DNA of 64,000 bases. It comes from Arenicellales bacterium (GTDB lineage: Bacteria > Pseudomonadota > Gammaproteobacteria > Arenicellales > JAJDZL01). How positions within the stretch are numbered: position 1 is the first letter of the stretch; every line of letters starts with the position of its first letter. The DNA is taken from NCBI GenBank assembly GCA_965214875.1, contig OZ243980.1:1496009-1560008 (forward strand), given 5' to 3'. This document shows positions 14,855 to 57,647 of this stretch, piece by piece. The position numbers were made by a program, and so were the translations under genes. The notes beneath the pieces are model-generated. The model was not told where the DNA came from. It saw nothing but the letters and a program-made list of their open reading frames with translations, and did no database searches.

Positions 14855-15265
14855 TGTACTGGTTCAATACATATGAGACTTTTCAGGCGGCAAGCGCCCT
14901 TTGTCCGAAGTTTTCATTATACGCCTGCATGGGCACCGTTTGTCCGAGCGCCTGATGCGGGCGATAGGCGTTGCAGAAGCGCTCGAATTCGGCCAGCTCG
15001 ACGTTCAGGGCGCCCACGCTCAGCTCGCCGTCGTAGAACTGGTGGAACTCGTAGTGGCCTGTGGCGGTGGCATGTTTCACGCAGCCGTTGCAATCCGACT
15101 TTATCGATGATCTGTAGCGAAATTTTGCCGCAAATCGAGGCGATAGGATTTCTGATGCGGATATTTGATTTGCATGACGCTTTCTCCCGCTTTTCGATGG
15201 CAAGATTTTTGCTAAGCGACATGCCGTCTGAAAATTTTCGCCCGTCTGTCTATTCCTTCCGGATT
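14855..15265 (-). mobile_element. IS481-like element, copy A (about 410-bp internal-deletion derivative, diverged and AT-enriched)
   Basis: The right end TGTACTGGTTCAATACATATGAG at 14855 (read on +) and ~250 bp of transposase 3' end (..YEFHQFYDGELSVGALNVELAEFERFCNAYRPHQALGQTVPMQAYNENF) are joined to a degenerate left end (..ttttcgcccgtctgtctattccttccgga). It is homologous to copies B-D. Confidence 0.6.
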
Positions 15266-24949: not shown

Positions 24950-26721
24950 ATGCAATACTTTCAGACACAGGGCAACGGCGATTCTGCAGATCATTATTCG
25001 CCTGCGCTTTGGGATAATGTTGCTAATCGTGTTCTGAATGAATTCAGAGATTTCTACCGCCAATTTCAAAAAATACCTAAACTATCGAACTAGCTTTCGA
25101 AAGACGGGACCACACCCGCTCACTACGTCTGAGTAGCCGGCGATTGCGGCTTTGCAGCATCAGCATTCGCGATTTCAGCCCCTATCTTGCGCAGGAGTTT
25201 CCAGATCTTGCGGCCGCCGAACCGTTATGGAAAAAGTCGAGAATCGATACCTTGAAATGGTGGAAGGCGATTACACTGCTGACTTTTCGTTTGCCTATCT
25301 GCACTCGATTCGCCGCACAATCTATCGGGGCGAATGGCGCATCGAAGACTATGCCAGCTACCGTAACAAGTATCAGACTGATGAGGTGATGGACGATCAG
25401 ATCGTTCGCTACGCGATTGAAGGCGAGCTGACGGCCGAGACAGTCAAGAAAATTTTGGCAATGGAAGTTTTTCGAGCGTCTTTCGAGGATATTGATCGGG
25501 ATGCCGATCGAATCGTAAAGCATGCATATCGAAACCTTGATCTCGAATCTCGTCTCGCGAATTCACCAATGACCATCGAAATGTTTCTGGCTGGTTTCTA
25601 CCGCAATCTAGGCGCCTATCTCGTTGGACGAGTTACTTTCGACAACAAGCGCTATCGCCCATTCATTATCGCTTTGCTAAATGGCGACCATGGCAGCTAT
25701 GTGGATGCATTGATAAACCTATGCGCATAACATGTTCAGTTCGACGTTAGGCCAATTTCAATGTGACCAATTTCTACTCTCACGAATTGTGCCGGTTTTT
25801 ACGCAGCATCATGCCGAAACGTTCGCTGGGCCCGCACTATTCGACGATCGGGTGCAACCATTTGGGAAAAGTGGCAGTGATGGCTGAATTGCAAGGTGAA
25901 TTTGCATCCCATCGCGAACCGATGAATGTAGCCCCCGGAAAGCCGGGAACGGTGGCCATTGCATTTTGCATGCCTCAGTCGGCATATGTTCTCAAGGTTA
26001 TTCGCGATATGCCGGCAGGCGACTACAAGTGGGGCAAGTTTGAAGGCACGGCATCGGTGCTTCGAAAATATAACAGGGTGCACGAAATCAACCGCATGGA
26101 CAGCATGCTGGATACGATGATTTTCTATAATCTTCTACTGAAGATTTCATGGTTCGCGCCTGAGTTGCTGAGTCTGCTTCTTGCTGACGCAAGCGAGAGC
26201 GTGGTGCTTGATGATGAAGCGCTGGTGTTCAAATATCTGGTTGTGCAGCGCAAGTTAACCCCATTGCCGATCTATCTTGAGAACGCAGCACCTCATCAAG
26301 CTGCCATAGCAATGAGCAATCTGGGATATTGCATCAAGAATATGCTGCAGGCAACATTTTCAATCGCGATCTTGATGCGCGCAATTATGGCGTATCTTCC
26401 TATTTGAAGGTCTATCTGTACGACTATGATGCGCTGGAAGATCTCACCAATGTCAGGATACGCACCAACTCCGACCGGGTTGACGGAGAGGAGGATGTGC
26501 CGGAGTGGTATTTCGAAGACGGCGTAGCATTCTTGCCGGAAGAGCTTGTTGTCGGCTTATGTTTGCCGCATCGGGATTTGCGTCGCCGATTTTCGGCCGA
26601 GCATGCTTCGTTGCTCGAGATGAGCTACTGGAAATCGGTGCAAGAAGACTTGCTGGTCGGCAAAGTGCCGCCGGTGAGCGTCTATCCGGATTCGGAGCGG
26701 TTGACGGATACGGACGCTTGA
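24950..26721 (+). pseudogene. aceK: Isocitrate dehydrogenase kinase/phosphatase, disrupted by multiple frameshifts and a stop
   Basis: AceK-like blocks are spread over all three + frames: NRVLNEFRDFYRQFQ (ends at TAG 25091), ..FSPYLAQEF.., VENRYLEMVEGDYTADFSFAYLHSIRR...FYRNLGAYLVGRV, FLRSIMPKRS...PGKPGTVAIAF.., NIFNRDLDARNYGVS...VYLYDYDALE...VPEWYFEDGVAFLPEE. At least 5 frame breaks, near 25091, 25225, 25725-25760 and 26345. Confidence 0.7.
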
Positions 26722-26732
26722 CGGCCTCCTGG

Positions 26733-27110
26733 CTAGACCGGCAGCGTGAAAATCCACCGGTCGATAGCCCAGATCGTCGCATAGTAGACGGCCAGCAGTT
26801 GGGCGAGCATAACGGCTGTTCCGCTCCAGCGGACCAGCGTTGCGCTTTGGGAGGTGAATTCGCCATTGCGGTGCATTGCGACCCATTGAGCTAGCCGTTG
26901 ATGCATCCAAGCCGGTGCGCCGCCGATGACGATGCCGCAAAATAGCAGGCCGCAAAGCACAAAGAGCAGTCCTTTCCACTGAAAAAGATGTTTCCAGGCA
27001 TCGTTTTGCCAGACAATGAAAAACGTCACGCCAATAAATGCCATGGCTGCGAAGTTGAGCGTGGCTCGTTTTGCTACGGAATAAACCAGATTTTTCGGCA
27101 GTGAGCGCAT
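26733..27110 (-). CDS. Hypothetical 4-TM membrane protein
   Basis: 125 aa, hydrophobic, with host-like composition. No family recognised. Confidence 0.45.
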   Translation of the reverse strand: MRSLPKNLVYSVAKRATLNFAAMAFIGVTFFIVWQNDAWKHLFQWKGLLFVLCGLLFCGIVIGGAPAWMHQRLAQWVAMHRNGEFTSQSATLVRWSGTAVMLAQLLAVYYATIWAIDRWIFTLPV

Positions 27111-27119
27111 TATCTCCTT

Positions 27120-27254
27120 AAAATCGCGTTAGGGAGGCTGAAAAAGGGAAGAAAATCTTGCATGCAATAATCGGTGTTTTACATGAAACAACCTTTCACG
27201 TGTTGGGTGAATCGGATTGAGGCAAGGCTTTACGGCTATCCTAATCACACACAA
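27120..27254 (+). mobile_element. IS1380-like left-end remnant, interrupted by IS481-like copy B
   Basis: aaaatcgcgttagggaggctgaaaaaggg...ggcaaggctttacggctatcctaatcacacacaa aligns with the left end of the 62093 copy (aaaatcgcgttagggtggctgcaaaagggg...ggagcaaggctttatggacatccaatcatacaag). It is more AT-rich and stops where IS481-like copy B begins. Confidence 0.55.
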
Positions 27255-28020
27255 TGTCCGGGGTCAAATACATGCGGGCGCACGAAAATTTTTCAGGCAG
27301 CATAGTGCTTCACACAAATCCATCAGCCGAAAGGCGGGAGAAAGCACCATGCAAGCCGAATATCCGCACCGCAGATTTTATCGCCTCGACGCGATCCGCG
27401 ACGAACTTTCGCCGCAGGCCGCCTAGTGCTTCGACAGTCTCGCGCTGTTCGACCGCCACGCCAAGCGCTGGCGCTACGGCGACCGCAGGCGAAAGCTGGG
27501 CTAGATGGTCCAAATCGATCACCTGAGCGTCTCTATCGAAGCCGGCTTCGCGGTCAAGGAGTCCGAGGCCGTCTGCCCGGTCTCTAAACTTTGCTGTATG
27601 CGCGCCTGCTCGCGCGCCACCGCCGCTTGCACCTCGAAGTTCCTGGACCATCTCATCCGCCAGGCGCCGTTCAATATCGAGTCGGTGCAGGTCGACGGCG
27701 GCAGCGAGTCCGCGGCCGAGTTCGAGACCGCCTGCCAGCGGCGCGGCATCGCCCTGTTCGCGCTGCCGCCCAAAAGCCCCAATTGCAGCGGCTGCGTCGA
27801 GCGCGCCAACGCGGCCGGCCGCTACGAGTTCCACCAGTTCTACGACGGCGAGCTGAGCGTCGGCGCCCTGAACGTCGAGCTGGCCGAATTCGAGCGCCTC
27901 TGCAACGCCTATCGCCCGCACCAGGCACTCGGGCAAGCGGCGCCCATGAGGCGTATAATGAAAACTTCGACCAAGGCGCGCTTGCCGCCTGAACAGTCTC
28001 ATATGCATTGAACCAGTACA
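27255..28020 (+). mobile_element. IS481-like element, copy B (766 bp, internal 374-bp deletion)
   Basis: Ends are TGTCCGGGGTCAAATACATG ... CATATGCATTGAACCAGTACA. Relative to copy C it lacks the segment between two GTTCGACC octamers (48456 and 48830 in copy C). It retains the rve C-terminal half (ORF 27505..28011). Confidence 0.75.
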
Positions 28021-28159
28021 CATAAATTTCAAAAATTCAAGCGGTTGATGTATCATGATGCCTGCAATCTAGTTGGCAATCGCTGTCGCGAATAAGGAGT
28101 GTATCAGCATCATGACAGAAAAAATGCAGCGAAAAGGAAAGAGCCGGCTTAGCTTTCCG

Positions 28160-28168
28160 CCCCCCCCC
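28160..28168 (+). repeat. Homopolymer C9 inside the 5' end of the autotransporter gene
   Basis: Counted directly: ...agctttccg CCCCCCCCC tccttcaac... Confidence 0.95.
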
Positions 28169-28236
28169 TCCTTCAACTAAGGCCGCATAGATTCCGGCCG
28201 TCCCGGTCTGGCCGGGCGCTGGTCCCGGCAATCGCC

Positions 28237-31200
28237 ATGCTGGCGCTTTGCGCCTCCCCCGCGCAGGCCGCGAACGAATGCGGCGAACTCGACCCTGACA
28301 ACTCCCGGTCCATCGTTTGCGCGGCCGGCGATTCGGCCGGCGACTACGACGCATCCGAAGGCAACATCTTCTACGAGATTTCGGACCGGGATGCCGACTA
28401 CCGGTTCGAGGTCCGCGAAGGGGTGGTCATCACGGGGGTGCGCAGCAACAAGTCGCAGGCGCTCGAGGAGGACAACGTCGGCGGCGAGCCCCAGGACGAC
28501 CACGGCCGGCGGAACTACAGGCCAGGTGGTGTCCTGGGCGATCCCAAGAATCCCGTGGAGGGGGATCCGCCGCACGCCTTGTACGGCGGCATCTTCATCG
28601 ACACGGACGAGGAGTTCGACGGCGACATCGCGCTGGAGTCGCGGGCCGACATCACGGTGATGAACGAGCCCTTCTCCACCGACGACCCGAACCTGAGAGG
28701 ACAAAGGCGCGAGGGCTTGCACGCTGTCTCCGTCGCCCGCGGCATCAGCGTCGCGCACTACGGCAGGTCGGGCGACCTCGACTTGAGGGTCGGGGGCTCG
28801 ATCCGCAGTCCCGGGACCGGCGTGTACGCCGAGATCGACAGCTTGCACCCCGACAAGGAGGGCAGCATGTTCAGGGACATCGACTTCGTCGGCGACATCG
28901 CCATCGATCTGCTGCCCGGCTTGAAAATCCTGACCGACGGCGAGGACGGTCATGGCGTGAGCGCGCAAAACTTCGGCAGCGGCGATATCACCATCACCGC
29001 GAGGAGGGCGAGGCGCTCCGGCGGGCCCGACATCCGGACCATGGGCCATGACGCCAGCGGGTTTCAGGTCAGACTGGGCAACCGGCATGACGTTTTCGAA
29101 AATGTCGAGGACCGCAATATAAACATCGATCTTGAGAATTTCCATATCAAAACCGAAGGCGGCTTCGGCACCGATAGCGGCCGGGATTTCGGGGCTCCCA
29201 GAGATTACTCGTTCGAAGGATCCAGGGGCTTGAAGGTTTACCACTTTACGAAAGGCGCGATGAACATCGCCCTGGCCGGCAGCAAGGTGGAGACCGAAGG
29301 CGTGCGCGGCCAGGGCATCTACGCGGTGTATTTTGCCGACGGCAGGCGAATGAATCAGGATGGCATGCTGCAGAATCACGGTCCCTTGCCTAAGAATACT
29401 AACGGCGGCGGGGCTATCAATATCGATCTCGCGGACACGCAGATCATGACCAGGGGAAACTATGCGGACGCGGTCTTCGGCTATCACGGGTCGGAAGGCG
29501 ATATCGACATCGATGTCGCTCGCGGCAGCGAAGTCACGACGGAGGGCGCGAACGCGCATGCCGTCGCCGGCCTGCATCACGGCACGGGCGATGTGATTGT
29601 CGATGTTCGCAGCAGCCGCATCGCCACGAAGGGCGCGGGGTCGGACGGCATCCGCGGCGGGCACCGCGGCGCGGGGGCCGTCATGATCACGGCCCGGAAC
29701 GCGGACATCAGGACGGAGGGCGATAAGGCGGACGGCATCTTCGCCTTCCATTTGGGGGCGGGCGGCACAGTCGATCTGACGAAATATGATCAGGCGGCGC
29801 CGGTATCGGCGGCGCGCGGCACCGGCCCTCGGGAACTTTTCGATGCGGCGCCGGCAGCGGATTTCGATTCGAGCGCAGGACCGCCCCGGATCCGTATCGA
29901 GGTCGATGGCGGAGAGATCGTCGCGGCCTGCGCCGGCGAGGACGCGGAGGACCCCGCCGACTGCCGGGGCCGGGGCATCGTCGCCGAGTTCGGCCCTGCC
30001 GCGCAAGACGGCGAGGCCCGGGTCGACATCGCCCGGGCGGTGGTCAGGGGCAGGCGCGCGGTCGAGTTCAAGGGCGGCCGGGGCGTGCTCAATCTCGCCG
30101 ACAGCCGTTTGGTCGGCAATGTGCTGTTTGCCGATGGCGACTACGACGACGTGCTGAGCATCACGCAAAGGTCCGGTTCCGGGCGGATTGGCGGAAGCGT
30201 CAATTTCCTTGGCGGCGACAACGACAAGCTGACGCTCGACATTGCCGACGGCCAGCACTTTGTTTTCGACGGGCCGGTTGTCGGGCTGGAGTCCTTCAGC
30301 AAAACGGGCGGCGGCTGGGTGCGCCTCGCCGACAATGCCGACTTCGCAAACAGCAGCCTGATGGTGGATGACGGGTATCTGGTCGTTGCCGGGCTGCTGA
30401 ATGCCGGCTCGGGCGAGCTGACCGTAAAAAACGCCGGCCGGCTGGTGTTCGAGGCGGGCCTTGACGGCTCGCCCGGCACCATCAGGCATGGGCAGATCAT
30501 TGCCGGCAGGCTGCGCTTTGAGGGCGTTCAAGGCGATGGCGGGCCGTTCGTGCTTTTTCAGCTGGACGAAGATTTGAGCGAAAAGCAGGTCGCTGAGGCG
30601 CGGCGGCTTCTGGCGGCATCGAACGGCTTGAATCTGCTCTATCCCGTCGAGTCGGTCACCGACGGGGCTGAGTCTGAGCTGGACGACCTGGAGATTCGGT
30701 CGCGGTCGGATGGCGGCGGCGAGTCGAAGGTCGGCATGATAGCGATCGATGATGACGGCATAGGCAAAGCCACGTTTGATCAGGAGGCGAAAGACAGGAT
30801 TGGCCGGCTGGATTTGCCGGGGACGTTCGTTGCCGGCGGGGGCGGGGGCACCGGCGGTTCCGGCGGGGGCGGTTCCGGCGGCGGGGGCGGCATTCTCGGC
30901 CTCGGCCTGCTGGCGGTGCTGCTGGGCGCTTTCCTTGGCGGCGGCGAGGAGGCGGATGCGGGCTTTGCCGAATACGGCCTGGGCTTTGCGCGGCCGGCCC
31001 ATGTCGCCGCGGCCGACGAGCGCGGCGTGCTGACCTTGCGCGAAGCGGGCGGGCGGCCCTACCGGCTGTGGGTGCGCACCGGCGCGGGCGCCCAGGCGCT
31101 GCCGATGGCCGGAGTCCCGGGCCTTGGCGCGGACGGCCTGGAGATCGGCTTCAGCCTGCGCGGCGGGGACGGCTTCCGTCTGAGCGCCTCGGCGGTGCCC

Positions 31201-31878
31201 GAGGCGGCGGCGCGGGCGGACGCGCTGAGGCTGTCCGCCGAGGGCTCGGCGCTGGCGCTTAGCGGCGGCTGGAGCGACGGGCGGCGCTTTGCGGGGCTGC
31301 GCCTGTCGCAGGGCGCCTTCGAGGCGGCCTCGGTGGTGGCCAATCCGGCGGCCGGCGGGGCGCTGCTGAGCCGGGCCCGGCTCGATGGCCGGCAGGCGCA
31401 GCTGCGGGCGGGCCTGCACCTCGATTCGGAACGCTGGCGGTGGACCCCGTCGGTCGCATTTCGCGCGGGCTCCTTCAGGCAGGGCGCGCACACGGCGCAA
31501 GGCGCGGCCCTCAGGGCGGAGGTCCCCGCGTTCGAGCAGGACTACGACAGCTTACAGCTGGGACTGAGGATGGCCGCGAAGGGGTGGCTGGACCTCGCCG
31601 GCGGCAAGTGGCGGCCGCAGCTGAAGCTCGGCACGGTGCGCACCTCGGCGGGCGGCGCCCGGTCGGCGGGGCTGGCCCAGTCCGACCGGCTCGGGGTGCT
31701 GAGCTTCACCACGCGGGCCGGCATCCGGGCCCTGCCGGAGACGGTCCATTCGCTGAGCTTCGGCGCGCAGGTGAAGGCTGGCGGCGGGCGGGCAGCATGG
31801 CGGTTCGGCCTCGCCGGACTCGAGGCCGACGGCGAGAAGCACTACGCGGCGCTGGCCGGCTACCGGCTGAGATTCTGA
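28237..31878 (+). CDS. Autotransporter (type Va) outer-membrane protein; the true start is probably ATG 28112 after a 1-nt correction in the C9 tract
   Basis: 1213-aa ORF. The passenger has degenerate beta-helix-like repeats (..GDIDIDVARGSEVTTEGANAHAV.., ..AVMITARNADIRTEGDKADGI..). A Gly-rich linker GGGGGTGGSGGGGSGGGGG follows, then a ~300-aa C-terminal domain with alternating-hydrophobic strands ending ..HYAALAGYRLRF (aromatic terminal residue typical of OM beta-barrels). I counted about 72% G+C at 28201-28300. Confidence 0.8.
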   Translation: MLALCASPAQAANECGELDPDNSRSIVCAAGDSAGDYDASEGNIFYEISDRDADYRFEVREGVVITGVRSNKSQALEEDNVGGEPQDDHGRRNYRPGGVLGDPKNPVEGDPPHALYGGIFIDTDEEFDGDIALESRADITVMNEPFSTDDPNLRGQRREGLHAVSVARGISVAHYGRSGDLDLRVGGSIRSPGTGVYAEIDSLHPDKEGSMFRDIDFVGDIAIDLLPGLKILTDGEDGHGVSAQNFGSGDITITARRARRSGGPDIRTMGHDASGFQVRLGNRHDVFENVEDRNINIDLENFHIKTEGGFGTDSGRDFGAPRDYSFEGSRGLKVYHFTKGAMNIALAGSKVETEGVRGQGIYAVYFADGRRMNQDGMLQNHGPLPKNTNGGGAINIDLADTQIMTRGNYADAVFGYHGSEGDIDIDVARGSEVTTEGANAHAVAGLHHGTGDVIVDVRSSRIATKGAGSDGIRGGHRGAGAVMITARNADIRTEGDKADGIFAFHLGAGGTVDLTKYDQAAPVSAARGTGPRELFDAAPAADFDSSAGPPRIRIEVDGGEIVAACAGEDAEDPADCRGRGIVAEFGPAAQDGEARVDIARAVVRGRRAVEFKGGRGVLNLADSRLVGNVLFADGDYDDVLSITQRSGSGRIGGSVNFLGGDNDKLTLDIADGQHFVFDGPVVGLESFSKTGGGWVRLADNADFANSSLMVDDGYLVVAGLLNAGSGELTVKNAGRLVFEAGLDGSPGTIRHGQIIAGRLRFEGVQGDGGPFVLFQLDEDLSEKQVAEARRLLAASNGLNLLYPVESVTDGAESELDDLEIRSRSDGGGESKVGMIAIDDDGIGKATFDQEAKDRIGRLDLPGTFVAGGGGGTGGSGGGGSGGGGGILGLGLLAVLLGAFLGGGEEADAGFAEYGLGFARPAHVAAADERGVLTLREAGGRPYRLWVRTGAGAQALPMAGVPGLGADGLEIGFSLRGGDGFRLSASAVPEAAARADALRLSAEGSALALSGGWSDGRRFAGLRLSQGAFEAASVVANPAAGGALLSRARLDGRQAQLRAGLHLDSERWRWTPSVAFRAGSFRQGAHTAQGAALRAEVPAFEQDYDSLQLGLRMAAKGWLDLAGGKWRPQLKLGTVRTSAGGARSAGLAQSDRLGVLSFTTRAGIRALPETVHSLSFGAQVKAGGGRAAWRFGLAGLEADGEKHYAALAGYRLRF

Positions 31879-31999: not shown

Positions 32000-32011
32000 C
32001 CCCCCCCCCCC
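32000..32011 (+). repeat. Homopolymer C12 in the unassigned spacer after the autotransporter
   Basis: Counted directly: ...gagtctccg CCCCCCCCCCCC aattcatcg... Confidence 0.95.
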
Positions 32012-32370: not shown

Positions 32371-32381
32371 CCCCCCCCCCC
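32371..32381 (+). repeat. Homopolymer C11 abutting the left inverted repeat of the IS30-like element
   Basis: Counted directly: ...aacaacataa CCCCCCCCCCC attccactatgaagtgcaacacc... Confidence 0.95.
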
Positions 32382-32480
32382 ATTCCACTATGAAGTGCAA
32401 CACCCTGGAGGTGGGTGGGGTGTTGCAAACGGCCGGCAGGCGGATGACAATCTCCATGTCAACCACAACGGAGAGCTGTC

Positions 32481-33613
32481 ATGCACAAGTGCTACCACCA
32501 GCTGGCCTATCACGAACGATGCCGGATCAAGGTCCTGCTGTCAAGGGGGTTTTCGATGCGCGGCATCGCCGGTGACCTGAACCGGAGTCCGGCCACGATC
32601 AGCCGCGAGGTCGCCCGCAACCGGGGAGGACGCGGCTACCGGCACGGGCAGGCCCAGGAGAAGGCTGTCGCCCGCCGCAGCGAGGCGTCGGGCGCACCCC
32701 GCAAGCTGACCGAGGCGCTGTGGCGGCGCATCACTGGCCTGCTGAGGCAGGGCTGGAGTCCGGAGCAGGTCGAGGGTCGCCTGAAGCGTCTGGGCGAGGA
32801 GACGGTGGGCCGGGAGTGGATCTGCCGGCAGGTCCGGGCGGACCGCAAGGCCGGGGGCGACCTGTGCCTGTGCCTGAGGCGACGGGGCCGGAAGCCGAAC
32901 TGGAAGGGCGGGCGGCATGCCGGTCGGGGCCGCATTCCGGGGCGGGTGGACATTGCCGAGCGTCCTGCGGCGGTGGAGGAGAAGAGCCGGGTCGGGGACT
33001 GGGAGCTGGACACGATCGTCGGCGCGATGCACCGGGGGGGGGGGCTTTGCTGTCCTCGGTGGATCGGGGGTCCTGGTTCACCATCCTGGAGCTTCTGGCC
33101 GGCAAGGCCGCGGCACCGGTGACCGAGGCCCTGCTGCGGCGCCTGGGGCCGTTCCGCGACCGGACACACACCCTGACCGCGGACAACGGCAAGGAGTTCG
33201 CCGGCCACGAGGAAGTGGCGGCCGGGCTGGACGCGGGGTTCTACTTCGCGATCCCGTACCATTCCTGGGAGCGCGGCCTGAACGAGCGCGTCAACGGCCT
33301 GGTGCGCCAGTACTTCCCGAAGGGCGCCGACTTCCGCCAGGTCGCGGCGGAGCAGGTGCGCGAGGTCGAGGACCGGCTGAACCACCGCCCCCGCAAGGTG
33401 CTGGGCTACCGCACGCCCTACGAGGTCTTCCACGGGGGACTGGCCCCGCCCGGACCCTGCCGCCCGGACGGTCCCGCGCCGCGCCCGCCAAGGGCGGGCG
33501 ATGCACCCGTACGCCCGGCATCGGGCCTTGCAATGCCGCCCGGCACTGTCTACAATGCCGGAAAGTCGGGATTGTCACCGCTTCGGGGCCGAACGAACAC
33601 TCCGCTCCCCTGA
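32481..33613 (+). pseudogene. IS30-family DDE transposase, frameshifted in a G11 tract
   Basis: The N-terminal frame (32481..) reads YHQLAYHERCRIKVLLSRGFSMRGIAGDLNRSPATISREVARN...WSPEQVEGRL...GDWELDTIVGAMHRGGG. It continues in another frame (to 33613): ALLSSVDRGSWFTILELL...TLTADNGKEFAGH...YFAIPYHSWERGLNERVNGLVRQYFPKGADF...LNHRPRKVLGYRTPYEVF. The switch is exactly at the G11 tract. Confidence 0.8.
33034..33044 (+). repeat. Homopolymer G11 inside the IS30-like transposase gene
   Basis: Counted directly: gatgcacc GGGGGGGGGGG ctttgctgtcc. G12 or G9 would restore ..HRGG(G)ALLSSVDRGSWF.. Confidence 0.95.
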
Positions 33614-33614
33614 T

Positions 33615-33665
33615 TGCCCCCTGCCTGTCCATGAAGGCGTAGCCTTCATGGACAGGCAGGGGGCA
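33615..33665. repeat. Perfect 24-bp-arm palindrome (3-nt loop) at the right end of the IS30-like element
   Basis: TGCCCCCTGCCTGTCCATGAAGGC gta GCCTTCATGGACAGGCAGGGGGCA. It starts right after the transposase stop and ends at the right IR. It may be a terminator or a subterminal structure. Confidence 0.9.
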
Positions 33666-34122
33666 GTGTTGCACTTCGGAGTGGAACTGGGGAACTGATT
33701 ATTTGCCGATCCTAGTTAATATTGGAACACTTTTACAGTCTCGGATGCGCCGTGCTGCAAACTGCTTCTTAACTCGCAGATGCAGTTGAATCGTCGTGCC
33801 TTCGTTTATGCCTGTGGATCGCCTAGCTGTTGGATTTCGCATAAAAATAGGATTTTCCCATGCCATTGGAACCACGCGATTGATCGTTTTCGATCATCGA
33901 TTTGCGCGTACGAACTGACTTTTTCGTTCTAGTGGTGTATGTGTATGCGCCATCGGATTTGTGCTACGCAATCAGGGTCTGCAGTGCGGCATACATGCCC
34001 GGGAGGTGTCGGTGCGTCTTGCGCAGTCTGAACGAATGCGTTATCTGTTGCCGCCGTGCGGTTTCATTGCAAACTATCCAAGTTTCACAACGTACAATTG
34101 ATCTATACTATGCATCCGTTGT

Positions 34123-34198
34123 GGGGCGGTAGCTCAGTTGGGAGAGCGTAGCGTTCGCAATGCTAAGGTCGGGAGTTCGATCCTCCTCCGCTCCACCA
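34123..34198 (+). tRNA. tRNA-Ala (anticodon CGC)
   Basis: ggggcggtagctcagttgggagagcgtagcgttCGCaatgctaaggtcgggagttcgatcctcctccgctccacca. It has the G3:U70 alanine identity pair, a TTCGATC T-loop and encoded CCA. Confidence 0.9.
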
Positions 34199-48242: not shown

Positions 48243-48289
48243 CGTCCGCCTCCTCCCGAAGGACGCAGTCCGAAGGGAGGAGGCGGACG
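48243..48289. repeat. 15-bp-stem hairpin within a ~51-bp insertion unique to the left end of IS481-like copy C
   Basis: CGTCCGCCTCCTCCC gaaggacgcagtccgaa GGGAGGAGGCGGACG. Copies B and D read ...acatgcgggcgc(a/g)cgaaaa... at this point without it. Confidence 0.85.
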
Positions 48290-48317
48290 CGCGAAAATTT
48301 TTGAGGTAGCATGGCGC

Positions 48318-49376
48318 TTGATTAAAACCCAACAGCCGAAAGGCGGGAGAGAGCGCCATGCAAACCGAATGTCCGCACCGCAAATTTTATCGTCTCGATC
48401 CAATCCGCGACGAACTTTCGCCGCAGGCCGCCGAGCGCTTCGACAATATCGCGCTGTTCGACCAGCTTCGCCGCGAGGGCGCGACCGAAGCGACCGCCCT
48501 GAAGGGATCGGCTGCTCCCGGGCCACGCCCTGCCGCTGGAAGCGGCGCCTGCGCGAGCAGGGCGTCCGCGCCCTGGCCGACCGCTGCCGCCGCCCGCACC
48601 GGGTGCGGCAGCGCCAATGGACCGACCGCGAGCTCGAGCTGGTGCGCCAGGCGCGGCAACGCTTTCCGCTGCGGGGGTGCGCCAAGATCCGCGCCGTGCT
48701 GGCGCGCGAGCGCGGCTTCGCGCCCAGCGAGTCCGCCACCGGACGCATGATCGCCCGCCTGGTTCGCACCGGCCAGGCCGAGCCCGTCGCGTTCCATTAC
48801 GGGCGCGTCAAGCCCAAGCGGCGGTGCAAGTTCGACCGCCACGCCCGGCGCCGGCGCTACGGCGCCCGCGGGCGAAAGCCCGGCCAGATGGTGCAGATCG
48901 ATCATACGGGCGTCGCCATCGAGGCCGGCTTCGCGGTCAAGGAGTCCGAGGCCGTATGCCCGGTCTCTAAGCTTTGCTGCATGCGCGCCTATTCGCGCGC
49001 CACCGCCACCTGCGCCACAAGATTCCTCGGCCATCTGATCCGCCAGGCGCCGTTCAATATCGGGCCGGTGCAGGTCGACGGCGATAGCGAGTCCGCGTTC
49101 GAGTTCGAGACCGCCTGCCGGCGCCGCGGCATCGCCCTGTTCGCGCTGCCGCCCAGAAGCCCCAAGCATAGCGGCTGCGCGGAACGCGCCAACGCGTCCG
49201 GCCGCTGCGAGTTCCACCGGTTCTGCGCCGGCGCGCCGGGCGTGGGCGCCCTGAACGTCGAGCTGGCCGAATTCGGGCGCCTCTGCAACGACTGCCGCCC
49301 GCATCAGTCGCTCGGACAAACGGCGCCCATGCAGGCGTATAATGAAAACTTCAACCAAAGCGCGCTTGCCGCCTGA
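48318..49376 (+). CDS. IS481/IS3-superfamily integrase-type (rve, DDE) transposase
   Basis: 352-aa ORF: ..RWKRRLREQGVRALADRCRRPHR.. (HTH region) ... QMVQIDHTGV ... FNIGPVQVDGDSE ... LPPRSPKHSGCAERAN (rve core). The likely authentic N-terminus MQTECPHRKFYRLDPIRDEL.. (ATG 48358) is in another frame. Copy D shows the two parts were once contiguous, so copy C carries a 1-nt deletion near 48505. Confidence 0.7.
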   Translation: MIKTQQPKGGRERHANRMSAPQILSSRSNPRRTFAAGRRALRQYRAVRPASPRGRDRSDRPEGIGCSRATPCRWKRRLREQGVRALADRCRRPHRVRQRQWTDRELELVRQARQRFPLRGCAKIRAVLARERGFAPSESATGRMIARLVRTGQAEPVAFHYGRVKPKRRCKFDRHARRRRYGARGRKPGQMVQIDHTGVAIEAGFAVKESEAVCPVSKLCCMRAYSRATATCATRFLGHLIRQAPFNIGPVQVDGDSESAFEFETACRRRGIALFALPPRSPKHSGCAERANASGRCEFHRFCAGAPGVGALNVELAEFGRLCNDCRPHQSLGQTAPMQAYNENFNQSALAA

Positions 49377-49471
49377 AAAGTCTCATATGTATTGAACTCG
49401 TACACCGAATTGGTTTACAATGGGGGCATTCCTATTCATTCGGAGATTGAAAAATGCTGAAGCTGAACTCA

Positions 49472-49482
49472 CCCCCCCCCCC
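49472..49482 (+). repeat. Homopolymer C11 between a start codon and a signal-peptide coding region
   Basis: Counted directly: atgctgaagctgaactca CCCCCCCCCCC atccagctagg. Confidence 0.95.
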
Positions 49483-49523
49483 ATCCAGCTAGGTTAGCTG
49501 CCGTCGGGCTAGCGCTTGCCGCG

Positions 49524-49988
49524 TTGTTGGTCTTGCCTGTGACTGCGCAGGCACAAGTGAAAGAGGAATGCGGTGCGGAAGACATCACCATAACGCTGCA
49601 TAAAAGCACCCCAAATACCTCTGTTGTTGAAGGCGTAAGCTCGACAATCGTATTCCGAAGAGATGCGGAAAAATGCTCCACGGATAATCCGCTCCCCTTT
49701 TGTGTCCGAATAATAGACACCACCCCATGCAATCCCGGTGATGCCACATGCTACCGCGGCACAGCCTATGCACATCAATCAAGAATTGTGAATCTTATAC
49801 CCCTCAACGCTCTTGAGCCTAGGGGACTAGAAAAGCTTTGCGGCCAAATGATAGCAGGTGCACCTCAAGTATTTCTCACTTACCGCACTTACAATAATTC
49901 CATCCGAGACTCCATTCCGAATGCGCTGCATATATTGATGATGAACCCGACGCGCATGCTAACCCTTGAAATTATGGACAACGACTGA
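49524..49988 (+). CDS. Hypothetical secreted Cys-rich protein; 5' end interrupted by C11, 3' end at an IS1380-like junction
   Basis: The frame is open from 49482 and encodes ..HPARLAAVGLALAALLVLPVTAQA/QVKEECGAEDITITL.. (signal peptide with an AQA cleavage site). The only RBS+ATG (GGAGA, ATG 49454) is in another frame upstream of the tract. The ORF ends ..LTLEIMDND exactly where the IS1380-like fragment begins. Confidence 0.5.
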   Translation: MLVLPVTAQAQVKEECGAEDITITLHKSTPNTSVVEGVSSTIVFRRDAEKCSTDNPLPFCVRIIDTTPCNPGDATCYRGTAYAHQSRIVNLIPLNALEPRGLEKLCGQMIAGAPQVFLTYRTYNNSIRDSIPNALHILMMNPTRMLTLEIMDND

Positions 49989-50377
49989 CATTTGTGCGAG
50001 CGCCTCGAGCAGGCGCCGCTCGCGGTGAAGATGCGACACGTCGTCCATGCACCGCCCGCCTTCGTGCAGCATCAGCATGAACGCGCTCAGAACCTCGCCG
50101 CTGCGGTAGCCCCGATTGCTGCCGGGCGATGCTATCCTGTCGTCGGCCGCCCGCTCCAGCCCCAGACGACCGAGCAGCTCCGCCGCCACCGCCAAGCCGG
50201 CTCGCGAAGCGGATTTCTTGCCGGTCGACTCGATCTTGCAGGGTAGAGCATCCATCAGCCTTGTACCGTTTGTGTCGTTCTCCGGCCTTCACCCGGAGGG
50301 TAACACCTCGAATGTTGGTAAAGCCTTATGATGCAAAATTTCCCGCTATTTTGCAGCCTCCTAATTGCCGATTAGGG
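49989..50377 (-). mobile_element. IS1380-like fragment (left end plus the first ~85 codons of the transposase)
   Basis: ORF 49959..50255 MDALPCKIESTGKKSASRAGLAVAAELLGRLGLE...RGYRSGEVLSAFMLMLHEGGRCMDDVSHLHRERRLLEAL parallels the 62200 transposase N-terminus. The upstream sequence (reverse complement ccctaatcggcaattaggaggctgcaaaatagcggg) matches the IS left end. Confidence 0.6.
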
Positions 50378-55361: not shown

Positions 55362-55588
55362 TTTCGCATTTCTTTAAATGAGGATTAGGAACCCCAGGCG
55401 GCAAGGTTACTGAATTCGCTGATTCAGATCAGGAAATCTGCTTGAAGCAAGGGGATTATATGTTTGGGTTGACAAGGTCCGTAAGATGGACGGGGAAAGC
55501 CGGAAAAGTCATACAGCCTGCAGAAAACAATTGCACAACTATTGTTGTAAACATTACGCACATGACAGGAGGGCAACATGATGAAGCA

Positions 55589-55598
55589 CCCCCCCCCC
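55589..55598 (+). repeat. Homopolymer C10 four codons after a strong RBS+ATG
   Basis: Counted directly: acAGGAGGgcaacATGATGAAGCA CCCCCCCCCC ataagcgttaaattg|TGTCCGGGG (IS481-like copy D starts 15 nt after the tract). Confidence 0.95.
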
Positions 55599-55613
55599 AT
55601 AAGCGTTAAATTG

Positions 55614-56235
55614 TGTCCGGGGTCAGATACATGCGGGCGCGCGAAAACATTTTCAGGTAGCATGGCGCTTGACAACAATCCAGTAGCCGAAAAGCTGGAG
55701 AATGCGCCATGCAAACCGAATGTACGCACCGCAAATTTTATCGTCTCGATCCGATCCGCGACGAACTTTCGCCGCCGGCCGCCGAGCGCTTCGACAAGCT
55801 CGCGCTGTTCGACCAGCTTCGCCTCGAAGGTGCCTCGCAAGCGACCGCCCTGAAGGCGATCGGTTGCTCCTGAGCTACGCCCTGCCGCTGGAAGCGTCGC
55901 CTGCGCGAGCACGGCTTCGCGCCCAGCGCCTCCGCCACTTGCGCCTCGAAGCTGCTCGACCGCCTGATCCGCCAGATGCCGTTCGACATCGGGCCGGTCC
56001 AGGTCGACGGCGGCGGCGAGTCCGTGGCCGAGTTCGAGAACGTCTGCCAGCACCGCGGCATCGAACTGTTCGCGCTGCCGCCCAAAAGCCTCATTTGTAG
56101 CGACTACGTCGAGTGTTCCAGCACTGCCGGCCGCACCAGGCGCTCGGACAAACGGTGCCCATGCAGGCGTATAATCGGAACTTCGAACAAAGTGGCTGGC
56201 CGTCTGAACAGTCTAATATGTATCGAACCCGTACA
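55614..56235 (+). mobile_element. IS481-like element, copy D (622 bp, several internal deletions, in-frame stop)
   Basis: Ends are TGTCCGGGGTCAGATACATG ... TAATATGTATCGAACCCGTACA. It retains MQTECTHRKFYRLDPIRDELSPPAAERFDKLALFDQLRLEG..ALKAIGCS*ATPCRWKRRLREHG, then jumps to ..LIRQMPFDIGPVQVDGGGES... Confidence 0.7.
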
Positions 56236-56914: not shown

Positions 56915-57406
56915 TCATGGCATCGGCAGCCGGGAGAAGAGCATGCCGAATCCGCCGACCATGATGCCGAATCCGCCGATCATGACCGCCATCTGCACCC
57001 CGACCACCCACTTGAGCCAGGTCAGGCCGCTCTCTACACCGCTTATCCGGGCCTCGAGCTCGGTGCGCAGCTTCTCGTTGTCGGCGGTCAGCTTGGCCTG
57101 CAGACTCTCGTTGTCGGCGGTCAGCTTGGCCTGCAGACTCTCGTTGTCGGCGGTCAGCTTGGCCTGCAGACTCTCGATATCGGCACCGAGTTCGGTTCGG
57201 ACCAGACCGAGTTCAGTTCGGACCAGATCGAGTTCGGCTCGGACCCGATCGACATCGGCTCGGACCAGATCGACATCGGACTTGGTCGCAAGTTCGCCCT
57301 GGCTGTCCTTGATCACCAAGGCGATGGCTTCGGCCTGCGCCGTGCCGAAGCCGGCCTTGTGCAAGCTCTTCGATGCGGTTAAAGTGTCAAACGTCATATT
57401 CGCCAT
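56915..57406 (-). CDS. DUF1640 (CCDC90-like) coiled-coil protein with C-terminal TM anchor
   Basis: From ATG 57406: MANMTFDTLTASKSLHKAGFGTAQAEAIALVIKDSQGELATKSDV..., then repeated coiled-coil units and a C-terminal hydrophobic tail WLKWVVGVQMAVMIGGFGIMVGGFGMLF. GC-rich relative to the host. Confidence 0.65.
   Translation of the reverse strand: MANMTFDTLTASKSLHKAGFGTAQAEAIALVIKDSQGELATKSDVDLVRADVDRVRAELDLVRTELGLVRTELGADIESLQAKLTADNESLQAKLTADNESLQAKLTADNEKLRTELEARISGVESGLTWLKWVVGVQMAVMIGGFGIMVGGFGMLFSRLPMP
57074..57172. repeat. Three perfect tandem 33-bp repeats inside the DUF1640 gene
   Basis: CTCGTTGTCGGCGGTCAGCTTGGCCTGCAGACT x3 (encoding LQAKLTADNES x3 on the minus strand), followed by a degenerate fourth unit. 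Looser ~24-bp repeats lie at 57184-57280. Confidence 0.85.
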
Positions 57407-57439
57407 GCCCACATGATACGAAATTCCTTCCGCAGGCGC

Positions 57440-57647
57440 TGAACTTTTCGCAAGCCCGCCCGAAGCCGCATCGCGGCAGCTGCCGGAGCGTCGCGCCCGC
57501 GCCAAGTGTCTGGCGGCTCGTCTTGCCGGTGCCGTCCGGCCAGCGCATCTTGAACAGCTCGTCGAGGCGCTTGTCCTCGTCGCCGTATTATTGAAGGAAT
57601 TCGTCCGGGCTGAGGCCTTTCTGGAACTGGACAGCATTTCGCTTCAT
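57440..57647 (-). pseudogene. IS1595-family transposase N-terminal fragment
   Basis: My translation from ATG 57647: MKRNAVQFQKGLSPDEFLQ*YGDEDKRLDELFKMRWPDGTGKTS. It matches the conserved IS1595/ISXO2-like start (..NAVQFQKGLSL.EFL..YGTEE.C...L...RWP.GF.CP). It has an in-frame TAA and the zinc-finger cysteines are lost. Confidence 0.55.

Follow-up and report, generated by a model that had tools for sequence, protein, structure and literature searches.

Introduction

Autotransporter genes with phase-variable expression have precedents in nalP, ausI, autA and autB (PMC5472700) and in bapC (PMC1891110). In Neisseria meningitidis, autA and autB carry AAGC repeats immediately after the start codon (PMC5472700), and the oipA-type outer-membrane genes of Helicobacter pylori carry CT repeats in their 5' region (PMC10564699). 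The bapC gene of Bordetella pertussis has a G10-11 tract and a second, C14 tract at its 5' end; in the predominant allele the frame is lost, although a change of one base would restore it, and tract lengths are mixed within cultures (PMC1891110). Here we describe a locus from an Arenicellales bacterium (assembly GCA_965214875.1, contig OZ243980.1, positions 1,496,009 to 1,560,008 of the forward strand; this 64,000-nucleotide stretch is the window, and all positions are counted from its first base) in which the start codon of a predicted type Va autotransporter gene and most of its coding sequence lie in different reading frames on either side of a run of nine C residues, and which is very probably a translational phase-variation (contingency) switch.

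Results

The locus, all parts of which are on the plus strand, opens with a Shine-Dalgarno-like AAGGAG (28094-28099), read directly from the sequence, 12 nt 5' of ATG 28112. This ATG begins a leader frame (28112-28180) that translates as MTEKMQRKGKSRLSFPPPPSFN, a 22-residue product ended by TAA 28178-28180; a second ATG in the same frame, at 28124, corresponds to the start conserved in orthologues. The leader contains a homopolymer of exactly nine C residues (C9, 28160-28168) flanked by G and T, and thereby falls within the range of at least about eight G/C residues, in a 5' coding region, at which it depends on tract length whether the product is complete or truncated. In the long frame, TAG at 28150-28152 is followed by sequence that is open from 28153, with no ATG, GTG or TTG between that position and ATG 28237, where the listed open reading frame (ORF) of the autotransporter (28237-31878, 1213 aa) begins. 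When the tract was varied in silico, lengths of C7, C10 and C13 fused the two frames to give MTEKMQRKGKSRLSFPPP(P)LLQLRPHRFRPSRSGRALVPAIAMLALCASPAQA/ANECG, with the slash here and below marking the predicted cleavage site, whereas C6, C8, C9, C11 and C12 led to stops after 22-25 codons. Since the start codons of this gene occupy one frame only, one in three length classes is ON, in which case the tract encodes poly-proline within the n-region. Much of this anatomy had been proposed in a first-pass annotation made from the window sequence alone, and it was reproduced throughout: the positions of AAGGAG, ATG 28112, the C9 tract and TAA 28178 by sequence reading and translation, the 1213-aa frame that is open from 28153 without a start before ATG 28237 by translation, and the joining of the frames by C10 or C7 by the in-silico variants, to which C13 can be added.

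The autotransporter frame also encodes the rest of a signal peptide (28153-28269), with n-region RPHRFRPSRSGR, h-region ALVPAIAMLALCA and c-region SPAQA, and with cleavage predicted before ANECG. Upstream of and across ATG 28237 it reads RPHRFRPSRSGRALVPAIA-MLALCASPAQA/ANECG, comprising a basic n-region, a hydrophobic core and an AXA site, while initiation at ATG 28237 would leave only MLALCASPAQA, 11 residues with no K/R and a hydropathy of 1.67. No Shine-Dalgarno-like sequence was read directly before that codon (ggtcccggcaatcgccATG), and the first-pass view of it as a start with neither a charged n-region nor a ribosome-binding site is borne out. Judged by manual criteria and by comparison with in-frame homologues, an N-terminal Sec signal peptide is present only after frame restoration: the C10-fused presequence has 53 residues (49 from ATG 28124), 10 K/R, an AQA/A site and a maximum 9-residue hydropathy of 2.63 at AIAMLALCA. 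Its layout is shared with the in-frame presequences of the homologous loci L005 (MKHLPKFTPPPLALGPVNTVRRGLVTTIALLVLGAAPAQA/ADECG), L006, L007 (MKPCSSSTPPPPPPLSLKSGRWRPSRNRWALLPAVAVLGLWAAPGQA/ANECG) and L010, and presequences of in-frame homologues are 32-47 residues long. The earlier description of this peptide as extended, in the manner of autotransporters, holds for its length and completeness but not for the extended signal peptide region (ESPR) motif, PF13018: when the 1255-aa C10 fusion was scanned against Pfam, no family scored E<0.01, and the restored presequence is thus long without being of the conserved ESPR type. The truncated start, M[LA]ALCA..AQA, is the one annotated in six of the 16 closest proteins (P0001-P0005 and P0008).

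Downstream of the presequence, the predicted passenger domain (28270-30900) starts with an A-N/D-E-C-G motif and an invariant pair of cysteines, continues in repetitive glycine-rich units, and is homologous to 16 close family members. Its residues 10-567 align to the passenger of P0021, a PF03797 protein (E 1e-22), the alignment beginning at a shared ENECG motif (ENECGEP in P0021) just past the signal peptidase site. After a glycine-rich linker, a hydrophobic helix in the region of GILGLGLLAVLLGAF (30901-30936; residues 29-40 of a 353-aa construct) is a candidate pore-spanning linker, and it is followed by a predicted C-terminal beta-barrel translocator domain (31030-31878, stop codon included) ending in ...YRLRF. 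The last 353 residues, used as query in an exhaustive search, retrieved 125 relatives, and the AlphaFold2 model of this segment (58-sequence alignment; mean predicted local distance difference test score 78, and above 90 across most of the barrel) shows the hydrophobic helix and then a barrel of approximately 12-14 long antiparallel strands, the C-terminal arrangement of a roughly 12-stranded barrel with a pore-spanning helix that characterizes type Va. The top 11 Foldseek matches in the PDB are all autotransporter beta-domains (EstA 3kvn at 2.5e-7, AaaA, BrkA 3qq2 and EspP among them), with AIDA-I and NalP (1uyn, 1uyo) lower in the list, at template-modelling scores of only 0.4-0.58. Comparison by hhalign of the family's C-termini with those of PF03797-bearing distant homologues gave 96% probability (E 2e-9, 164 columns), and the protein ends, in ...GYRLRF, on a C-terminal aromatic residue, the final F being invariant across 58 relatives. 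Neither the whole protein nor its C-terminal 353 aa matched PF03797 in Pfam at E<=1, and Pfam and NCBIfam gave no match for the whole protein, the passenger or the C-terminus; identity is therefore drawn from profile-profile comparison and structure, and the combination of an unmatched PF03797 with an hhalign link to it marks the family as a divergent subfamily. On this basis we regard the protein as a predicted divergent classical (type Va) autotransporter, so that the label given at first pass stands on the AlphaFold2 model, Foldseek and profile comparison despite the lack of a match in either family library. The 1213-codon ORF is undamaged, and its alignment to homologues runs from end to end (97% coverage).

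Compared with P0005, P0003 and P0002, the gene is mosaic. Against P0005, encoded in the same genome, identity is 28-52% in the passenger and 80-93% over the last ~300 residues, which are 91-96% identical to P0003; against P0002, from an Arenicellales metagenome-assembled genome (MAG), the passenger matches better (55-70%) and the barrel worse (47-69%). Similarity to the paralogue type extends to the 5' leader. This pattern suggests gene conversion of the ends or, alternatively, passenger exchange between paralogues.

The closest proteins come from complete or large contigs. Records of the named relatives are MAGs of Arenicellales, Ca. Poriferihabitaceae and Paracoccaceae, while the contigs of other relatives bear metaMDBG-style names (of the form ctgN_72x_l), and a Sanger genome note describes such MAGs as obtained from sponge with PacBio HiFi reads and metaMDBG assembly (PMC12859430). 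The nearest relatives of the window's bacterium are sponge-associated. Reading of the DNA upstream of each gene revealed poly-C or poly-G at the same position in seven related genes (13 loci) from sponge-type MAGs, with lengths of C9, C12, C13, C19, C24, C31, G9 and G20 and with both ON and OFF states represented. L005 (C12), L006 (C31), L007 (C19) and L011 (G20) are ON, L001 (G9) is OFF, and L010 has an ordinary signal peptide and no tract. In the Ca. Poriferihabitaceae loci L002, L006 and L007, the leader offers two ATGs, one in each of two frames, ahead of the tract (ATGAAACCATGC), such that two of three length classes are ON, with N-termini MKPCSSSTPPP... or MLIIYPPP...; L002, which represents the gene of L007 in another assembly, is ON at C24 only via the second ATG, in the other frame. 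In the Paracoccaceae MAG OZ244066, the tracts of L003 (C8) and L004 (C11) are non-coding, lying ~60 nt upstream of an in-frame start. These two paralogues have in-frame signal peptides and a tract context of ACACAGTTG-Cn-G[A/G]CTTCCGG, and their tracts may represent a transcriptional or 5'-untranslated-region variant of the same theme.

The most informative comparison is with five alleles of orthologues of P0005, in which the tract measures C9 (L008), C9 (L009), C13 (L012), C9 (L013) and C12 (L014) between flanks that are otherwise ~97-100% identical. Their leader (MQQKANDRLNFPPPP, compared with MQRKGKSRLSFPPPP in the window) is positionally homologous to that of the window's gene, and the tracts occupy the same alignment columns. 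All five alleles are OFF, three requiring the gain of one base and two (L013 and L014) the loss of one. Length polymorphism with conserved flanks is therefore present both in this group and between L007 and L002 (C19 and C24). A fixed tract position combined with lengths that vary among relatives supports a hypermutable switch; the comparison of orthologous loci that the first-pass annotation had called for thus came out in favor of hypermutability, with tract length varying among near-identical alleles. The same orthologues carry another tract ~150 nt upstream of the leader ATG, non-coding and directly before TGAGATACAAT, of G10, G11, G9, G11 and G9 in L008, L009, L012, L013 and L014, respectively. 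It could be a promoter-spacing switch; inspection by eye near this tract found no convincing -35 element.

Long G/C homopolymers are a feature of the window as a whole. Its C runs comprise 11 of length 5 and none of 6-8, and then C9, C10, C11, C11 and C12, to which one G11 is added; G/C 9-mers match 16 times, in six tracts, compared with 0.27 expected from 100 shuffles (largest shuffle value, 4). The C9 tract is thus more than chance. A second gene of the same design lies at 49454-49988, with C11 at 49472-49482. From ATG 49454, C11 gives MLKLNSPPPPSS and a stop, i.e. the OFF state, while at C10 or C13 the product is MLKLNSPPPHPARLAAVGLALAALLVLPVTAQA/QVKEECGAED..., in which an entire signal peptide leads into the 'ECG' start seen in the autotransporter family. 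Its ORF has only 154-177 codons, being cut by a reverse-orientation IS1380-like element, and in its sole homologue, P0163 (locus L017), an A-to-C change produces C13 at unchanged total length, leaving that gene likewise OFF and likewise truncated. Downstream of the autotransporter gene, an IS30-like insertion sequence (IS; 32383-33686, with inverted repeats ttccact(at/cc)gaagtgcaacac) has a transposase gene interrupted precisely at the G11 run (33034-33044), which leaves an HTH_38 ORF followed by an rve_3 ORF; G12 or G9 restores a single ORF of 377 or 376 aa, and the transposase could be phase-variable, slippage-dependent or the product of a homopolymer miscall. A C11 run (32371-32381) sits two bases outside the left inverted repeat of this element.

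Two further tracts stand beside short ORFs or IS ends. At 55578-55633, ATGATGAAGCA-C10 (MMKHPPP..., with C10 at 55589-55598) resembles another tract-bearing leader; the left end of an IS481-like element (GTCCGGGGTCAGATACATG, 55615) follows ~16 nt past this C10, and no signal peptide continuation was recognised beyond the element. The C12 at 32000-32011, ~120 nt past the autotransporter stop, lies between ORFs of 36 codons (31941) and 63 codons (32060) which one extra C would join, and nothing marks either as a real gene.

The region upstream of the leader has been remodelled by insertion. An internally deleted IS481-like element (27256-28021, plus strand, ends placed by alignment; Pfam rve_3, transposase C-terminus at 27505-28011) has inserted into the terminal part of an IS1380-like element (27116 onward), and 90 nt separate its right end, ...GAACCAGTACAC, from ATG 28112 downstream. 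Compared with the orthologues, the IS end replaces the segment with the G tract and TACAAT, and homology restarts at AAATTCAAGCGG at 28033. A sigma-70-like promoter match (28028-28056; TTCAAA, 17 nt, TATCAT; 9/12, a match to consensus only) falls within the retained 90 nt and is the only promoter-like match on the plus strand upstream of the gene. C10 and C11 tracts near other IS481-like copies had raised the idea that the C9 tract is part of the element, and this was rejected because IS homology ends at 28021 and orthologues have the tract without the IS.

The IS load is heavy for 64 kb. In total, four IS481-like copies or fragments (14855-15238, 27256-28021, 48260-49405 and 55615-56192) are 83-92% identical, and a 352-aa ORF is retained only at 48318-49376, and at least three IS1380-like pieces (27116-27250, 49959-50300 and 62089 onward) include one interrupted by an IS481-like copy. 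Some 1.5 kb upstream of the locus, aceK (isocitrate dehydrogenase kinase/phosphatase, 25152-26721) is split among at least three ORFs, which match consecutive stretches of the Pfam models; the breaks are not at long homopolymers, and the gene is probably a real pseudogene. The segment 27000-34200, which holds IS elements and the autotransporter gene, has a GC content of 59-75%, compared with 48-56% around it (window, 52-54%), and is bounded on the right by tRNA-Ala (34123-34198), while tRNA-Thr (51300) adjoins the other cluster of IS elements and tracts; this pattern is consistent with horizontally acquired islands. Elsewhere, 57057-57291 consists of tandem 33-nt and 21-nt repeats within a minus-strand ORF (56915-57637, 240 aa) that has weak coiled-coil-type Pfam matches.

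Discussion

Building on the anatomy of the locus, its frame logic, the autotransporter fold and the variation in length that relatives show in the homologous tract, we infer that the window's own locus switches, and likewise the rate and the benefit of this switching. The start codon, either ATG 28112 or the conserved ATG at 28124, shares one frame with about the first 15 codons, while the remaining signal peptide and the 1200-residue protein lie in another; the two are linked by a poly-C tract that would mutate by slipped-strand mispairing during replication. With C10 (or C7 or C13), translation would yield a 53-residue Sec signal peptide consisting of a very basic n-region with poly-proline, a hydrophobic core and AQA/A; the protein would be exported, its C-terminal barrel would insert in the outer membrane and the passenger would be displayed. 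With C9, the length in the assembly, translation would stop after 22 codons and the protein would not be made. Gain or loss of a single C would flip individual cells, such that the population would always hold both types, and the benefit presumably lies in avoiding the cost of surface display, e.g. recognition by host cells or phages.

Several observations weigh against this reading, and they are best considered with the alternatives that they favor. No second allele of the window's own gene was present in the collections searched, where its 90% cluster has a single member; a scan of Joint Genome Institute (JGI) metagenomes with a degenerate leader/tract pattern gave no match, a protein-based JGI scan gave two weak partial relatives only and no further alleles, and a plasmid megablast with 27000-29000 gave no match. 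The assemblies of the relatives are of the PacBio HiFi/metaMDBG type, as this one probably is, and in such assemblies the consensus can miscount a homopolymer by one base. Most residual errors in HiFi reads are indels in homopolymers. The true majority could accordingly be C10, or the reads mixed, with the gene in frame in most cells; such a miscall would change the reported OFF state and not the nature of the site. In its favor, the upstream tract is G10 in L008 and G11 in L009, two assemblies of nearly identical sequence, and one added base repairs six of the eight listed OFF alleles, the window's included. The requirement for -1 in L013 and L014, however, means that a sequencing bias in one direction does not account for the pattern, and systematic undercalling was rejected as a complete explanation for this reason. 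C9 was moreover recovered twice in independent orthologue assemblies (L008, at 690x, and L009), the differences between C9 and C12/C13 and between C19 and C24 exceed calling error, and nearby long housekeeping ORFs are intact, indicating an assembly that is not generally indel-ridden. We consider a consensus miscall unlikely on balance, though it deserves to be kept in mind. The first-pass claim of a slipped-strand switch that is currently OFF is to be divided accordingly: the switch is supported by the variable, position-conserved tracts of relatives, but the OFF state is not readable from one consensus that is probably HiFi-derived.

That the window's gene and all five alleles of the P0005-orthologue group are OFF fits a dominant OFF state, but also genes heading for loss. 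The gene might have suffered an ordinary inactivating frameshift amid IS expansion and gene decay, its tract having no switching role, a scenario favored by the decayed aceK nearby, by four IS481-like copies alongside IS30-like and IS1380-like elements in 64 kb, and by truncation of the second tract-bearing gene (49454) by an IS. The insertion 90 nt upstream of the start points the same way: having displaced part of the ancestral region upstream, it might leave the gene transcriptionally silent at any tract length. A 3.6-kb ORF without further lesion would, however, not be expected to persist under decay, the sole defect falls exactly at a family-wide tract of fixed position and variable length that has in-frame members, and signal-peptide coding is kept on both sides of it; we give a dead gene a small chance. 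A similarly slim chance attaches to recoding, whereby the C9 template would be expressed through RNA polymerase slippage (a C10 mRNA) or a -1 shift on C CCC CCC, yielding constitutive low-level expression and no heritable switch. Long homopolymers are known slippage sites, -1 is the direction required by frame arithmetic, and the IS30-like transposase is likewise split at its G11 run. Yet documented transcriptional slippage is mostly at A/T runs, the RNA 3' of the tract has no better-than-random structure (z = -0.91), and one fold pairs the Shine-Dalgarno sequence with a CUCCUU beyond the tract, though no better than in shuffles (z = +0.41); in addition, the alleles need shifts in different directions, and their length differences are seen directly in DNA. 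Finally, the annotated start could be right, with initiation at ATG 28237 and a functional 11-residue MLALCASPAQA, as gene callers have it here and in five relatives. We find this scarcely credible, given that the peptide lacks both basic residues and a ribosome-binding site, that the codons immediately 5' of this ATG, read in its frame, specify n- and h-regions, and that the presequences of in-frame homologues have 32-47 residues. A phase-variation switch on a divergent autotransporter gene remains the reading that we consider very likely.

More tentatively, a single divergent autotransporter family may be common to sponge-associated bacteria of three or more lineages (Arenicellales, Ca. Poriferihabitaceae and Paracoccaceae), its leader having repeatedly gained poly-C/poly-G switches of 9-31 bases, some with dual starts and some with a second, promoter-proximal tract; in the present genome the switch would sit within a dense hypermutable set (six in 64 kb, among them those of another secreted-protein gene and of the IS30-like transposase), with the passenger exchanged between conserved 5' and 3' ends. 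If so, contingency loci, so far a hallmark of vertebrate host-adapted pathogens and commensals, would represent bet-hedging in uncultivated, presumably mutualistic sponge symbionts, and ON/OFF ratios would be measurable in situ from existing HiFi reads. Full-text searches of the literature for phase variation, contingency loci or homopolymeric tracts in sponges or symbionts yielded no account of such loci in sponge symbionts. The mechanism itself is textbook phase variation, and the understanding of such switches is unchanged; what differs from the described systems is a protein subfamily unrecognised by current HMM libraries, tracts of up to C31, dual starts in Poriferihabitaceae, and the biological setting. 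These organisms are uncultivated sponge bacteria represented by MAGs only, and how they handle host-cell and phage recognition is an open question, for which a family of large surface proteins that is switched ON and OFF stochastically, and is mostly OFF in the assembled consensus, offers a concrete, testable handle. The tract-length distributions are already contained in the long-read data from which these genomes were assembled. The false start chosen by gene callers in six of the 16 closest proteins, combined with the Pfam miss, renders both the autotransporters and their switches invisible in standard annotation.

Among the described systems, nalP and ausI have poly-C in the coding region, as at the window locus (PMC5472700), and structural matches to the window protein's barrel include the NalP translocator. 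Compared with nalP, however, there is no detectable sequence relationship between the passengers, that of the window protein not belonging to a Pfam-recognised protease family; the host of the window's family is a sponge-type symbiont and not a human mucosal pathogen, its tracts reach C31, and its switching is predicted from sequence. The resemblance to bapC, also an autotransporter gene, lies in the P0005-orthologue group, which has two tracts (upstream G9-11 and coding C9-13) with all alleles OFF. Unlike in bapC, the upstream tract of the orthologues is non-coding and the protein families differ, and in the window the IS insertion removed the segment that holds this tract. With autA, autB and the oipA-type genes, the locus shares a repeat just past the start codon and the dependence of a whole exported protein on tract length, while in place of their tetra- and dinucleotide repeats it has a mononucleotide run encoding poly-proline (poly-glycine in L001 and L011). 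Contingency genes of the lic type in Haemophilus influenzae use alternative start codons in different frames, an arrangement that is mirrored by the two ATGs in two frames of L002, L006 and L007, and from which the window's gene differs in having its start codons in a single frame.

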